A stretch of 64,000 bases of DNA from Dipteris shenzhenensis. Taxonomy: Eukaryota. The position numbers were made by a program, and so were the translations under genes. The stretch lies in NCBI GenBank assembly GCA_047967505.1, contig CM106538.1, one strand, 5' to 3'. Below the pieces are notes generated by a model. The model ran no database searches. It saw nothing but the letters and a program-made list of their open reading frames with translations, and was not told where the DNA came from. This document shows positions 51,622 through 57,940 of the stretch, in pieces; the first letter of the stretch is position 1, and every line of letters begins with the position of its first letter.

Positions 51622-54210
51622 TCCTTAGTTGGGTCTTTCAATACATCAGCAATCGTCCTTTCTTGACCCTGCAATAGAAACTCAGCATCTTTGTTGACAC
51701 GTTTTAAGTGTGTCATCCCATGATTAATGTATAGTGGGACGCTATATGTTTGTAGCAATGTTGTGGTTTCTTCTACTTGTCCATCTTCTATGGACTTTAG
51801 CCATCGATCAATCAATCTCCTTTTGGCTTTGAACAAATAGGGCGATGACACTTTCCTATCTATGGGGAGCCAACTCCTTTCATGACTGGCTCTATTGTCG
51901 AAAAAATGCCTTGTTCTTGTAAGAGTTCCTTACACTCCCAAACATTTACGTTGGACAATGGAAACCTCAGCTGAAATGATACCTCATCCATGCTAAAAGT
52001 ATCACGATATAAAAATCCTCCACATATATGCTTTAAGCAAATTTGAGTCCCTATTGAGTTTTGCAAACCCTCCCCCACGCCAGTTGATGTCTGAACATTA
52101 GTTTGCATGTGCATCCCTCCAATGCCACCAGGCCTGAAGTCAAAGCCTCCTTGCCCACCTACCTCTAACTGTTCTGAAGTGCTCCATGTGGCAGTCTGAG
52201 TTAGATTGACTGTGCTTTTTCCCACCTCATTTAGCATTGAATATCCAGGCTCTAGCACTGCGGCTCTTCCTTCCCTATCAGCTGATTGCAAAGACAGACC
52301 CACATCATTGTGGTACCACCCAAAATGAGCCCTGTCACCCCCAAGGCATGGGCTTGTGGCTATATCAAATCTAGTAGTGCACTTTATAGCGATTTTTCTG
52401 AACCCACTTGCAACCTAAAATTCAATCTCAAAGATGACCTCAATAGAGGCTCTCTCTAATGTATGTGGCTTACTCACAACATGATTACCAGTGTCACTTA
52501 AAGCTCCTCCTGGGCCAGGATACACTTTGACCCTCAAAGTAGTACTATCTTCATCTCCATCCCCATTACCACTCTTGCCTTTTCTCTCTACAGAAGAAAA
52601 CAAATTCATTAACCTCATTTTCACATTTTTTTCCTTAGATGTGTAGAGCCATCTCCAAACCTAGTGCATTGTAAAATATAGAATGCCAAATAATGCAACA
52701 GTGGTTGACTGACTTGCTGAGTTTCCAACGCAGGGTGCTCCACCAATATAGCAGCATTATTAACTCCCACTCCATACCGTTTACAAAAATATTCAACTTC
52801 TAATTCCTCTACCTGAATCTCACATGATTCGGAGCTCAAATGAATCTTTGCTATCACTTCCTTGCTGCTCAAGGCCCTTAGCCACATATCTTTCCAAGCA
52901 TGTGCACTGCTTCCAACAATCATAGTGTCCAAGTCTTCATTTAATATGACATGCCCATAATCCATACCTACTCCCACACAGCTTGCCATACCCTCTGCAC
53001 TGAGAAATACAACTTCTAGTTTTCCTGTAATACTGCAAAAATTTCTTGTAAAAATTATCTCCCCTGGTAGCTCAGCATAAAGCAATGCTCCAAAACTTCT
53101 TTCTGATACTTCTGTTATCAATTGTTGTTCAAAACAGTACCTACAATCATAAAAAAATAAGAAAATGGCACCTAAAAGCCCACTCAAATTTAGAATCGTG
53201 AACTGATACTTAAAAATATCATCTTCTTACTTTGAATTCATGCTCCTCCAATGAGAGTCACAGTCTGTTTTCTTACGTTGAAGATCTTTATCAGTCTACA
53301 AGATAAAAAGACTGAATTAAGAAGGTAACTTAAATGTATTCACAAATAAATCAATACTCTCCTATGTTTGTCCCCTCTCTCTCTCTCGCACACACACACA
53401 CAAGCACACTCATGTGTGACTAAGCACTCCTACTCTTAGGACAACATATTCAGACATGGTATCACAGCTTTAGCGTCATCATCCTAGATGCGGAATGGAG
53501 CAAAAACAGCATCAAACTGTGGCAATCACGCATGATTTTGACCACAAAATGCAACGGACTGCATCTAGGGACGACAGCCACGCTACTACAATTCTTTGAA
53601 CACTACGGACAATCTACATGAGCGTAATTTTCAAAGCAACAATAGTTTGAAATAGTGAGAGCAAAAGAAGAGGCAAAAGACAACAGTGTGAAGAAGAGGA
53701 GGAGAGGAACCGGTAAAGTAAAAGTTGAAGGAGAGAGACAATATGAAAATCCAAAATGACAGAAAACCTTGAAACTTGGATATGTATATGTGTTTGATAT
53801 GTGTATGTGTTTGACTGTAACTCTTCTCTTCTTCGTACCTGATTCGTCCCACCTCCAATAAGTGGTGATTTTGTAAGAGTTTCTTGCTTGTTAGCGTTCA
53901 GCTGTAAAACACAGAATCAGTTTGCTGCTTTTACGTTAACTCCGTACAATCAATGACGAAAATCATCCTTGATTGTACTTTTCGCTCACCTTAACTGCCA
54001 AGCCTCCAACAGGAATTGATTCGAAAGAGGTTTCACTGTTTCACAGCAGAAACTTTCGAAAATATTTGTTGTCAATCACTCACATCATCACAGCCCTAAA
54101 CACGAAGTCTAAAGAAATTTTCCCCCAAAAGTAAGAGGGGGAAACTTTCGAAAAATAGAATTCATGATTGTAGCCTTTGACCACTGTTGGCTTCCTTTCC
54201 CTAAGCTCAT
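51622..54210 (-). pseudogene. Unknown multi-exon gene, left copy (disrupted), C-terminal half with aerolysin-like features
   Basis: Small exons mirror the right copy. Large exon from 53140 reads through ORFs 52621-53187, 52415-52624, 51860-52303 and 51522-51851, linked by three frameshifts and one stop. Ends against the LINE at ~51621. Confidence 0.7.
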
Positions 54211-55746
54211 ATTTCCACTCTTCAATACTCGAAGCTTCTCCCGAGACCTCCCCTTTACCCTGAAAAAAACGATCTTTAATAGGCTCATGCGGGAGAGACT
54301 TCTCTCATCTGCTTGCTTTTACATACTTCCACGCATCTGCCTGCTTTTATATAATTCAATGACAAAAAGCTTCGAACCAGTCATGCTTTTCTCAAGACGA
54401 TGCATGGCAAAAAGCAATGGCGTGAAGAAAGCATTCAACTCACCTCGATCCTCGGTTTCTTAACAGGCGCTATGACCTTTTTCTAATATTTCTTCAAGTG
54501 GGATGGGTCTCCAAGTTGGTATGTTGCTGTGTTTGTGGCCATTTGCCACAATGTAGCAAGAATCAGCTGGCTGGTGCCACAATGCAGCAAGCAAGAACCA
54601 GTTCGCTGGTGCCACAATGGCACAATAATCAAGAGGTTTGAGAACAGAACACTACATAATCAAGTGGTTTGAAAACAGAATGCTACAGAATACTACAGCA
54701 AAGATCAAAGTCGAGCGTCGCAGTAACTCAACAATCGAAGATGCTTCTTTAGAGTTTGTTGGTCATTTGTTGTAATTTGGGCCCCTTTATACATGTTACA
54801 GTTTCAACCTTTCTCTTGGAAGAGCCCATGTAGCATCAAAGTTGGGAATGACCCCTCGGCAAAGCTTCCAATGTTGTCCACACTTGACTTGTTAGCAGTA
54901 CACGATTCTTCTTTCTTCAATATTGTCCACACTTCACTTGTTAGCAAAATAGAATTCTTCTTCTTCGAAATTCATGTGCTTCCAACTGATAATCATGGAC
55001 ACTTTTGTTGAACACAAGTATTTGAGCTGTCCATTCAAGCAGCATTAAGAAGGGGTCAAAATGACATGTTAGAATGATAGTGGTGAAGAGCAAGTCATAG
55101 CAATAGATGACACATTTAGGCAATCATAGATCCCTTGTTGTGGTAAGAAGAGGAACAACATTTTAAAGAGGCCCTTGCACATGATGAGGAATGAGGTCCA
55201 TTCCTTCATCAAAAGATGCTTCATATCCCAATGTGGAAGGCTTTTACAACAAGAAGTTTCATGTCAATCAAATTTCAATAAAATCTACTTGTAAACGCCT
55301 TCCACATGTTGGATATGAAGCATCTTTTGATGAAGGAATGGACCCCATTCCTCATCATGTGCAATAGCCTTTCAAAATGTTGTTCCTCTTCTTACCACAA
55401 CAAGGGTTCTATGATTGCCTAAATGTGTCATCAATTGCTATGACTTGCTCTTCACCACTATCATTCCAACATGTCATTTTCACTCCTTCTTATTGCTGCT
55501 TGAATGGACACCTCAAATACTCGTGTTCTACAAAAGTGTCCATGATTATCAGTTGGAAGCACATGAATTTTGAAGAAGAAGAATCCTATTTTGCTAACAA
55601 ATCAAGTGTGGACTTTATTGGAGAAAGAAGAATTGTGTACTGCTAACAAGTCAAGTGTGGACAACATTAGAAGCTTTGCCGAGGGGTCATTCCCAACTTT
55701 GATGCTACATGGGCTCTTCCAAGAGAAAGGTTGAAACTGTAACACG

Positions 55747-55753
55747 TATAAAG
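55747..55753 (+). promoter_or_regulatory. Candidate TATA box of the duplicated gene (mirror copy at 54785-54791 on the minus strand)
   Basis: TATAAAG about 350 bp upstream of the first strong donor (cgag|gtgagt, 56094). Motif and position only. Confidence 0.4.
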
Positions 55754-56328: not shown

Positions 56329-57131
56329 ATGAGCTTAGGGAAAGGAAGCCAACAGTGGTCAAAGGCTACGATCATGAATTCTATTTTTCAAAAGTTTCCC
56401 CCTCCTACTTTTAGGAGAAAATTTCTTTAAACTTCGTGTTTAAGGCTGTGATGATGTGCGAATATTTTCGAAAGTTTCTGCTGTGAAACAGTGAAACCTC
56501 TTTCGAATCAATTCCTGTTGGAGGCTTGGCAATTAAGGTGAGCGAAAAGTACAATCAAGGATGATTTTCATCATTGATTGTACGGAGTTACGTAAAAGTA
56601 GCAAACTGATTCTGTGTTTTACAGCTGAACGCTAACAAGCAAGAAACTCTTACGAAATCACCACTTATTGGAGGTGGGACGAATCAGGTACGAAGAAGAG
56701 AAGAGTTACAGTCAAACACATACACATATCAAACACATACACATATCCAAGTTTCAAGGTTCTCTGTCATTTTTCATATCGTCTCTCTACTTCAACTTTC
56801 ACTTTACCGGTTCCTCTCCTCTTCTTCACACCGTTGTCTTTTGCCTCTCTTCTTTTGCTCTCACTATTTCAAACTATTGTTGCTTTGAAAATTACGCTCA
56901 TGTAGATTGTCCGTAGTGTTGAAAGAATTGCAGTAGCGTTGGCTGTCGTCCCTAGATGCAGTCCGTTGCATTTTGTGGTCAAAATCATGCGTGATTGCCA
57001 CAGTTTGATGCTGTTTTTGCTCCATTCTGCATCTAGGATGATGACGCTAAAGTTGTGATACCATGTCTGAATATGTTGTGCTAAGAGTAGGAGTGCTTAG
57101 TCACACATGAGTGTGCTTGTGTGTGTGTGTG

Positions 57132-57166
<35 letters not shown>

Positions 57167-57940
57167 AAACATAGGAGAGTATTGATTTATTTGTGAATAC
57201 ATTTAAGTTACCTTCTTAATTCAGTCTTTTTATCTTGTAGACTAATAAAGATCTTCAACGTAAGAAAACAGACTGTGACTCTCATTGGAGGAGCATGAAT
57301 TCAAAGTAAGAAAATGATATTTTTAAGTATCAGTTCACGATTCTAAATTTGAGTGGGCTTTTAGGTGCCATTTTCTTATTTTTTTTATGATTGTAGGTAC
57401 TGTTTTGAACAACAATTGATAACAGAAGTATCAGAAAGAAGTTTTGGAGCATTGCTTCATGCTGAGCTACCAGGGGAGATAATTTTTACAAGAAATTTTT
57501 GCAGTATTACAGGAAAACTAGAAGTTGTATTTCTCAGTGCAGAGGGTATGGCAAGCTGTGTGGGAGTAGGTATGGATTATGGGCATGTCATATTAAATGA
57601 AGACTTGGACACTATGATTGTTGGAAGCAGTGCACATGCTTGGAAAGATATGTGGCTAAGGGCCTTGAGCAGCAAGGAAGTGATAGCAAAGATTCATTTG
57701 AGCTCCGAATCAGGTGAAAACCAGGTAGAGGAATTAGAAGTTGAATATTTTTGTAAAAGGTATGGAGTGGGAGTTAATAATGCTGCTATATTGGTGGAGC
57801 ACCCTGCGTTGGAAACTCAGCAAGTCAGTCAACCACTGTTGCATTATTTGGCATTCTATATTTTACAATGCACTAGGTTTGGAGATGGCTCTACACATCT
57901 AAGGAAAAAAATGTGAAAATGAGGTTAATGAATTTGTTTT
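56329..57940 (+). pseudogene. Unknown multi-exon gene, right copy (5' half, cut by gypsy-D LTR)
   Basis: GT-AG exons 56280-56393, 56492-56537, 56625-56687, 57241-57305 and 57397- join in phase: MSLGKGSQQW..N ETSFESIPVGGLAIK LNANKQE..TNQ TNKDLQ..NSK YCFEQQLITEV... The start ATG at 56329 is inferred and the 56393 donor is weak. Confidence 0.7.
57117..57163. repeat. Compound (TG)n(AG)n microsatellite; shorter mirror at 53374-53402
   Basis: Directly visible; repeat counts differ between the palindrome arms. Confidence 0.9.

Follow-up and report, generated by a model that had tools for sequence, protein, structure and literature searches.

The window analysed here, a 64-kb stretch of Dipteris shenzhenensis DNA, holds a 5.3-kb palindrome whose arms of 2653 and 2652 nt are followed on the right by a gypsy-type LTR retrotransposon (Table 1). 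A repeat search recovers the palindrome as a collinear chain of inverted pairs, running from 52597-53157/57380-57940 inward to 55162-55228/55311-55377, and when 52597-55250 is aligned globally with MAFFT to the reverse-complemented 55287-57940, 2556 columns match, 75 mismatch and 46 fall in 12 gaps, the K2P distance between the arms being 0.029 (the identity in Table 1 is that over ungapped columns). The two ~2.65-kb reverse-complement arms and the 39-nt gap described in the initial annotation are borne out by the repeat search, the alignment and a direct read of the sequence, and the arm-to-arm alignment that it called for confirms the inverted repeat at these coordinates. Chance cannot be the source of such a structure. 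No further copies of the arms were found in the window by blastn. Besides the main pair, the window contains nine inverted pairs of at least 150 nt; five are more segments of the palindrome and four lie elsewhere. Three of these four read as copies of transposon LTRs.

Table 1. Features in and around the palindrome, in window coordinates
Feature	Position	Strand	Remarks
Second DGAT1 exon	39958-40143	-	residues 279-298
Nearest DGAT1 exon (in ORF)	44023..44208	-	residues 229-273 of a 528-aa DGAT1 chain; E 4e-9 to chain 9vjx_B
Left-copy continuation outside palindrome, C-terminal domain	51690..52600	-	tblastn; motifs FGWYHND, PYLFK, NHGMTHL
Left arm of palindrome	52597..55249	-	gene copy reads outward to the left; 97.15% identity to right-arm reverse complement
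Large exon, left copy	52621..53140	-	TGA at 52621-52623; 6 aligned sites differ from right copy
Unique spacer (39 nt), centre of symmetry	55250..55288	.	direct sequence read; arm alignment ends here
Right arm of palindrome	55289..57940	+	gene copy reads outward to the right, cut off at 57940
Large exon, right copy	57397..57916	+	conserved central domain of moss-type family; TGA at 57914-57916; acceptor ttgtag|GTAC
LTR (3' LTR of - strand gypsy-type element)	57941..59553	-	homology to other LTR copies
Gypsy internal part (gag, protease, RT, integrase ORFs)	59554..64000	-	assigned by reading translations; runs off window end

The duplicated gene

Each arm carries a gene copy that reads outward, on the - strand at left and the + strand at right, just as the head-to-head arrangement first proposed would have it. 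The last exon, of 520 nt, is the sole exon in the arms with homology support; it shares 24-33% identity with proteins of a Sphagnum cluster, and together with the left-copy continuation it matches a Sphagnum-type protein family that is uncharacterised and whose other observed members all come from Sphagnum or from peat-moss metagenome contigs. Of the five in-phase exons originally read, homology thus backs the last. Threading of GT-AG introns is uninformative here, as it yields no chain from the ATG at 55997 under strict rules and at least 2000 under relaxed ones. Nor do the arms hold a complete five-exon gene on their own: past the arm edge at 52597 the left copy extends for another ~0.9 kb, to ~51690, and its tblastn matches to the moss proteins (53109-52636, 52600-51821 and 51875-51693) are collinear across that edge. 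The arms probably cover two-thirds of a host gene, from its 5' end, together with the region upstream of it.

Several observations support a host-type origin for this gene, as judged from its sequence relatives. In nine moss loci of the family, the neighbours are pyruvate kinase, DUF4378/VARLMGL, ankyrin and DUF7792 genes, and no transposon domain was found among the 99 ORFs scanned in these loci; no inverted repeat of at least 200 bp was found in any of 41 moss loci of the family. Within the palindrome, none of the 37 ORFs scanned (out of 72 in the arms and centre) reaches a curated Pfam cutoff, in agreement with the earlier statement that the arms contain no transposase or RT. The family match and the ordinary host-gene neighbours of the relatives, in other words, point to arms derived from a host protein-coding gene, and the claim of a host-type source made at the outset holds up on both counts. 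No other copy or intact paralogue of the gene was found in the 64-kb window.

The gene is, on its reading frame, a pseudogene with three lesions. The first is a frame break with a TGA that is common to both arms, as is an A7 run, and to pass from the preceding exon into the left-copy continuation the frame must change between 52643 and 52600. Because the TGA and the A7 run occur in both arms, the frame break is either older than the duplication or was passed from one arm to the other by gene conversion. The second and third lesions lie in the left-copy continuation: an in-frame TAG at 52415-52417, within a conserved block where it aligns without a gap to K or T, and a 1-nt frameshift near 51874-51877, within a G-SW motif. 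Two of the three are 1-nt frame changes at short homopolymers and could be long-read assembly errors; the TAG is the only substitution among them.

Divergence of the arms

The arms differ by ~2.9% overall, mostly through CG-type transitions. The 75 substitutions comprise 55 transitions and 20 transversions (ratio 2.75), and transitions per C/G site amount to 16/90 in CG, 7/148 in CHG and 32/812 in CHH contexts, a CG rate ~4.5 times the CHH rate. Two pairs of variants singled out before, acatgt/acgtgt near 54791 and ggtcat/ggtcgt near 54761, are each a CpG/TpG difference between the arms. The microsatellite length difference corresponds to a 16-nt gap at 53386, and the indel reported as ~14 bp near 54065 is present, as a 12-nt gap at 54069. 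The exon is less diverged between the arms than are the non-coding parts. The preponderance of CG-type transitions fits what would be expected of CG-methylated, neutrally evolving DNA. Divergence is also uneven, at 1.1% at the outer end versus 4.7-6% near the centre (p = 3.5e-4), which is not what the simple neutral decay of one duplication would lead one to expect.

Could the arms instead be alleles, or paralogous copies, that a fold-back chimeric long read joined head-to-head in the assembly? Divergence of 2.9% that is lower in the exon would also match allelic variation in a heterozygous genome, and a transposon, possibly an allele-specific insertion, is all that sets the right flank apart from the left. 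However, the arms are not identical save for random sequencing error; their differences follow a biological mutation spectrum, and the extent of divergence, the transition and CpG bias and the microsatellite and indel differences all favour the view, taken from the start, of a real, aged structure over a fold-back read. Biological fold-back duplications typically show a short unique spacer and clean arm ends, and both are seen here. Additionally, the palindrome does not lie at an edge of the window, which extends more than 6 kb past it on the right, and the remaining inverted pairs are accounted for largely by the palindrome itself and by LTR copies. We regard an assembly artefact as unlikely.

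Hairpin potential and the DGAT1 question

The DNA encodes a long inverted repeat that can fold into an extended imperfect hairpin; the central 999 nt alone folds at -828 kcal/mol (z -56). Were the palindrome transcribed in one piece, the transcript would be predicted to form a near-perfect long hairpin. The copies stand head-to-head and their promoters fire outward, however, so these promoters cannot make a hairpin, and read-through from outside is needed.

The initial annotation looked for that read-through in DGAT1: the palindrome would lie in a long DGAT1 intron, DCL enzymes would dice the pre-mRNA hairpin and the resulting siRNAs would silence the gene family in trans under the DGAT1 promoter. 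Two DGAT1 exons are confirmed, the nearer of them 8.4 kb from the palindrome; both lie on its downstream side only, on the same - strand, within a window that ends at 64000. They are ~3.9 kb apart with LTR copies between them, and large transposon-filled introns thus look usual here. The 5' exons (residues 1-228) were not found in 44209-64000, in what is a weak test based on a few short motifs and on Pfam searches of ORFs of at least 45 aa; they could lie beyond the window, although a DGAT1 fragment truncated at its 5' end is equally compatible with this result. The hairpin would be very stable, and natural inverted repeats of genes or pseudogenes that silence paralogues are known, namely GmIRCHS (PMC3859349) and PAI1-PAI4 (PMC3431836). 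Against these points, an intron of at least 20 kb would be required, with the whole gypsy element inside it and possibly that element's terminators too; introns are normally spliced and then degraded in the nucleus; and the duplicated gene is a pseudogene with no intact paralogue in the window. That the palindrome sits inside a DGAT1 intron is an unproven premise, silencing of paralogues in trans by this locus is purely conjectural and the proposal as a whole seems to us improbable. A bolder version is very hard to credit: DGAT1 pre-mRNA or gypsy LTR read-out would carry a 2.6-kb duplex, coupling a lipid-synthesis gene to endoIR-siRNAs that silence a lineage-specific bryophyte-type family in trans, and the centre-ward divergence would reflect selection for a hairpin stable as DNA and still diceable as RNA.

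The right edge

Homology of the right arm to the left copy stops at 57940, while the left copy goes on. LTR homology begins at 58009, possibly at ~57935-57966, and in any case at most 70 nt from the arm end; inside the LTR, ~633 bp are duplicated in tandem. The outer end of the LTR is ambiguous, at 57935 (TG) or at 57941, where there is no clear TG, and its inner end, ...tttaca at 59553, lies beside a purine-rich tract. The internal part of the element has homology to a second copy at 33916-36441. Our favoured reading, which we think probable, is that the gypsy element later interrupted the right copy and that the original palindrome exceeded 5.3 kb; alternatively, the duplication simply ended at 57940. 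An insertion is not provable from the window, since the far LTR, like the point at which the arm would resume, is to be expected past 64000 and the outer LTR end is ambiguous.

These edges also speak to whether the palindrome is a fold-back or long-TIR DNA transposon or a gene-capturing element of the Pack-MULE type, with inverted repeats that carry gene fragments: long inverted arms around a short middle are the classic fold-back shape and the region is packed with transposons, but the outer ends are not termini with a target-site duplication (gene homology crosses the left one and the right one abuts an LTR), the arms have neither a transposase domain in the 37 ORFs scanned nor a second copy in the 64-kb window, and the moss relatives occur singly, without inversion, and have host genes for neighbours, which leaves this explanation with next to no credibility.

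A proposed origin

We favour, with a probability of roughly two in three, a genuine head-to-head (palindromic) segmental duplication of an already disabled host gene. A replication or repair error (e.g. fold-back priming, or template switching at a short inverted microhomology) would have copied the locus back on itself, leaving the 39-nt spacer; the two copies would then have diverged by ~2.9%, mainly through CG-type transitions, and the right copy would later have been interrupted by the gypsy LTR retrotransposon. Most likely, the locus does nothing that is selected for. For hairpin RNA to arise from it, a promoter outside would have to drive transcription of both arms on one strand, candidate sources of - strand read-through being the adjoining gypsy 3' LTR and, if the locus lies in a DGAT1 intron, DGAT1 pre-mRNA. 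Folded, this transcript would be a duplex of ~2.6 kb and would enter the endogenous inverted-repeat siRNA pathway, in which DCL2, DCL3 or DCL4 would dice it independently of any RNA-dependent RNA polymerase; local heterochromatin, rather than regulation, would be expected to follow.

Comparison with known inverted repeats

How does this locus compare with characterized systems? EndoIR-siRNAs are treated as a recognised class in a review, where the ~3-kb IR71 duplex of Arabidopsis is diced without RDR1, RDR2 or RDR6 (PMC10827316). Like IR71, the present locus is a long, imperfect, genome-encoded hairpin on the ~3-kb scale, the type of substrate used by DCL2, DCL3 and DCL4 without an RDR; the endoIR loci listed in that review are non-coding and backed by small-RNA data (PMC10827316), whereas ours is known from foldable DNA alone.

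Closer in origin is GmIRCHS at the soybean I locus, a natural inverted repeat of a host pseudogene (the chalcone synthase pseudogene pseudoCHS3) as ours is; its transcript would yield double-stranded RNA with the capacity to silence members of the family (PMC3859349), and a 27-kb CHS inverted-repeat cluster is described as yielding siRNAs against CHS7 and CHS8 (PMC3804491). GmIRCHS itself is a perfect repeat whose transcripts have been shown and which has a phenotype and loss-of-function mutants; the arms described here are 2.9% apart and known solely as DNA. Mu killer of maize resembles the present locus in being a partial inverted duplication covering the 5' part of a gene, with a similar arm length and the need for an outside promoter: read-through from a flanking gene is proposed for its hairpin RNA (PMC3440606), and the 2.4-kb hairpin is reported to be processed to siRNAs (PMC3431836). 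Mu killer derives from and silences the transposon MuDR, whereas the present palindrome derives from a host-type gene without transposon domains, and read-through of it is hypothetical. PAI1-PAI4 of Arabidopsis Ws, an inverted repeat of a host gene, induces methylation, in trans, of paralogues that are not linked to it (PMC3431836). PAI1-PAI4 is arranged tail-to-tail; the locus studied here is head-to-head, with its own promoters directed outward and no hairpin arising from them. Inverted duplication of protein-coding sequence was reportedly proposed in a 2004 paper, cited in PMC10827316, as the starting material of MIR genes; on that model, the locus, with its kilobase arms, would be at the very earliest stage at most.

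Outlook

The locus is best viewed as a by-product, left by genome turbulence in a region rich in transposons. It is of use chiefly as a test case, both as a candidate for small-RNA mapping and as an assembly check, and it also points to an uncharacterised plant protein family. It is accepted that inverted gene duplications supply the material from which hairpin-siRNA loci and young microRNA genes are made; an example dated at ~3% divergence, if it lies outside the flowering plants, would be one more data point for the origin and decay of such loci.

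Structure and age of the palindrome

With a probability of about 0.65, we read the palindrome at 52597-57940 as a genuine palindromic duplication, of moderate age, of a host gene that was already disabled; a repair error (fold-back or template switching) probably produced it, an LTR retrotransposon probably split it later, and its DNA is read as neutral and CG-methylated. The structure described in the initial annotation, including its 39-nt spacer, is borne out by a repeat search of 50000-64000 and by arm-to-arm alignment. The search recovered a collinear chain of inverted pairs with 91-99% complementarity, running from 52597-53157/57380-57940 inward to 55162-55228/55311-55377. 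Global alignment of 52597-55250 with the reverse complement of 55287-57940 gave 2556 matches, 75 mismatches and 12 gaps (46 columns), i.e. an identity of 97.15% over ungapped columns and a K2P distance of 0.029. The inverted repeat is confirmed to be far beyond chance, and blastn found no further copies of the arms in the window. The finer differences that had been described between the arms are also there: all of the named CpG/TpG differences are present, as is a difference in microsatellite length (16 nt at 53386), and the reported indel exists, at 54069, with a size of 12 nt rather than 14. This indel (54069-54080 in the left arm versus ~56459 in the right; GATGAT, then GTGAGTGATTG, versus GATGATGTGCGAATA) deletes a GTGAGT donor-like site that is found in the left arm only. 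As a result, the left and right copies would splice differently, provided that the small upstream exons exist.

Coordinates of the palindrome, its gene and the flanking features
Feature	Coordinates	Strand or length	Evidence or detail
Left arm	52597-55249	gene copy reads -	direct reading of sequence
Spacer	55250-55288	39 nt	direct reading of sequence
Right arm	55289-57940	gene copy reads +	direct reading of sequence
Arm region, outer exon	52597-53140		6/544 mismatches/sites, 1.1% divergence
Arm region, middle	53141-54500		33/1338 mismatches/sites, 2.5% divergence
Arm region, adjoining centre	54501-55249		35/748 mismatches/sites, 4.7% divergence
Large (last) exon	57397-57916; mirror 52621-53140	+; mirror -	relatives found by protein search
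Gene family in window	51690-53140; 57397-57916	-; +	
P0002 residues 308-481	53109-52636		tblastn
P0002 residues 518-802	52600-51821		tblastn
P0002 residues 777-842	51875-51693		tblastn
LTR inner end	59553		adjoins purine-rich tract
Gypsy-type gag-pol ORFs	after 59553 to window end	-	
DGAT1 exon ORF	44023-44208	-	residues 229-273 of 528-aa DGAT1 chain, E 4e-9
DGAT1 exon ORF	39958-40143	-	residues 279-298 of 528-aa chain; residues 240-266 of human DGAT1

Is the palindrome a property of the genome or of its assembly? The 75 substitutions between the arms comprise 55 transitions and 20 transversions. Relative to the C/G sites of whichever allele carries the C, transitions affect 16/90 CG, 7/148 CHG and 32/812 CHH sites, so that the rate of change at CG is ~4.5 times that at CHH. 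Such a spectrum is what deamination of methylated CG produces in genuine DNA and is unlike sequencing error, and for this reason a simple fold-back read is excluded, in agreement with the initial annotation. We consider it unlikely that the arms are instead two haplotypes joined head-to-head in a chimera. The substitution rate in Arabidopsis is ~7e-9 per site per year; with this rate, which may not be this organism's, K = 0.029 would place the duplication at roughly 2 million years.

Divergence is uneven along the arms (chi-square 15.9, p = 3.5e-4 for heterogeneity across the three regions in the table), reaching 6.0% in the 250 nt closest to the centre, and 30 of the 33 substitutions in the middle region are transitions. 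The exon may still be under some constraint or may undergo gene conversion, the alignment may be wrong in short internal repeats near 54867-54969, or palindromes with diverged centres may survive preferentially. Palindromic DNA is stabilised by central asymmetry.

A disabled gene of a moss-type family

None of the 37 arm and centre ORFs scanned (of 72) reached the Pfam cutoff, consistent with the described lack of transposase and reverse transcriptase in the arms, and no Pfam family was assigned to the ORFs of the last exon and flank. Among 1.84 billion representative proteins, the large exon has only five relatives (E 6e-7 to 8e-4); a search for homologous proteins of 'longer' or 'near' length at E <= 0.01 returned none, and a protein atlas search gave no usable match. 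The relatives, of 400-950 aa, are annotated as 'hypothetical', with an N-terminal WRKY-like domain in one subfamily; the species-named members of their clusters are Sphagnum, and most others are JGI/IMG metagenome records. Pairwise BLASTP of the exon against them gave 24-26% identity over 143-159 residues, with the motifs PGEI, VGVGMDY, W..W and (R/K)(Y/F)GVG in common, and the homology to these moss-type proteins is confirmed by such comparisons as real but distant. The family, which has no Pfam model, carries a central domain (PGEI...VGVG[LM]DY...W..W...FGVG) and a C-terminal domain (FGWY.DN, PYLFK, NHAMTHL), and beyond the window our searches found it solely in proteins bearing a Sphagnum name and in metagenome contigs from peat moss. 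An AlphaFold2 model of one moss-type member (P0028; 28-row alignment) had a mean pLDDT of 33.6 and was unusable.

A metagenome scan yielded 41 loci encoding family members (L001-L041), none of which contains an inverted repeat of at least 200 bp; among the family loci found, the inverted arrangement is peculiar to the window locus. In nine of the longer loci, we scanned 99 of 136 ORFs of at least 110 aa. Family members there have ordinary genes as neighbours (pyruvate kinase, DUF4378/VARLMGL, ankyrin repeats, DUF7792), and the 99 ORFs include no transposase, reverse transcriptase or integrase, which supports the earlier description of the arm gene as host-type, here for an uncharacterised family.

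The arms cover only part of this gene. In tblastn, the left copy runs past the arm edge, collinear with the moss proteins, in three segments of the moss protein P0002 that lie in three different frames, and of these the right copy contains just the first, ending at 57940. At the first break, the frame shifts between 52643 and 52600, and the first frame closes with a TGA (52621-52623) directly downstream of an A7 stretch. Both the A7 stretch and the TGA (57914-57916) recur in the right arm, and because the lesion is common to both arms, it is either older than the duplication or was spread between the arms by gene conversion. We looked for an intron bridging 52643-52600; no GT-AG pair, of those checked by eye, restores the frame. 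The second break is an in-frame, gap-free TAG (52415-52417) opposite K or T in a conserved block (FEIEF*VASGFRKIAIK versus F(T/E)F(D/H)F(K/T)K..AS..I in the moss proteins). A 63-nt GTGAGT...TAG intron around 52415-52477 would remove it, but the stop falls in the gap-free conserved block, and the TAG is best read as a nonsense codon, not an intron. At the third break, one base is absent near 51874-51877, within a conserved G-SW motif. Since these frames are broken, whereas the conserved part of the gene in moss loci is a single open frame of 524-876 aa, we take the window copy to be a pseudogene. The two frame changes, at short homopolymers, could be assembly errors; the TAG is not explicable in this way.

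Further upstream in the arms, tblastn found no segments matching the moss proteins, and GT-AG threading of the upstream 'exons' gave 0 chains under strict and at least 2000 under relaxed settings, which is uninformative on exon number.

Flanking elements and DGAT1

A LINE-like copy at 50806-51566 (-), with a weak RVT_1 match at 51168-51365, lies directly against the left gene copy at its 3' end and may have cut off that copy's tail; the fragment has two other copies, at 5785-6730 and 21957-23082. On the right, arm homology stops at 57940 and LTR sequence begins by 58009 at the latest. Because arm end and LTR start coincide within at most 70 nt, the likelier story is that the LTR inserted into a longer right arm. 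Alignments to other copies of this LTR (38411-39111, 30416-30539 and, inverted, 33116-32598) fit an outer end at either 57941 or 57935; from 57935 the LTR would start TGTTTTTAAAACC, resembling TGCCTTTAAAGGC in the copy at ~38.3 kb. The LTR also contains a tandem duplication of ~633 bp (58122-59380; 58122-58756 versus 58755-59380), ~93% identical over its whole length with sub-blocks at 99-100%, and a 23-nt tandem duplication near its outer end (~57953-57998).

Two DGAT1 exons (39958-44208, -) lie ~3.9 kb apart with LTR copies between, an arrangement that suggests a genome with large, transposon-filled introns. A homologous-protein search with one DGAT1 exon returned nothing. From 44209 to 52596 there are LINE-like remnants (repeat copies, an RVT_1 match and ORFs by reading), and no DGAT1 5' exon was found in 44209-64000 by what are weak tests (Pfam searches covering 150 of the 164 ORFs with at least 45 aa, and a few short motifs). 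The palindrome may lie within a DGAT1 intron of at least 20 kb or beside a 5'-truncated DGAT1.

Prospects for a hairpin RNA

The initial annotation had proposed that the arms form a hairpin in a DGAT1 intron and silence the gene family in trans. This proposal depends on three links, namely intron location, transcription and targets, and we regard it as improbable. Since the copies lie head-to-head, with the right one reading + towards 57916 and the left one - towards 51690, their own promoters would yield a pair of sense mRNAs but no double-stranded RNA. For a hairpin, a single transcript would have to cross both arms. From where might such a transcript come? LTR read-out transcription is a familiar phenomenon, and on the - strand the promoter of the neighbouring gypsy 3' LTR could conceivably provide it in this way; DGAT1 pre-mRNA is a second conceivable source. 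The central 999 nt (- strand) are predicted to form a single, almost perfect stem of -828 kcal/mol, versus a mean of -253 kcal/mol (SD 10; z -56) for shuffled controls.

Such a hairpin RNA would be a substrate of the endoIR-siRNA pathway, in which DCL2, DCL3 and DCL4 work without RDR enzymes and for which IR71 (~3 kb) is the type case (PMC10827316). Three worked examples come closest: Mu killer, whose hairpin measures 2.4 kb (PMC3431836) and is proposed to arise when transcription of a flanking gene reads through (PMC3440606); GmIRCHS, a CHS pseudogene present as an inverted repeat (PMC3859349); and PAI1-PAI4, in which the repeat is tail-to-tail (PMC3431836).

Additional inverted repeats in the window (30632-30896/33117-33381, 32520-32945/38764-39189 and 32947-33116/38573-38742; 92-98% complementarity) are read as oppositely oriented members of the same LTR family, placed around an element at ~31.6-36.4 kb. 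They represent a second place where read-through could yield double-stranded RNA. The palindromic duplication itself is, as judged from its sequence, a potential source of endoIR-siRNAs.
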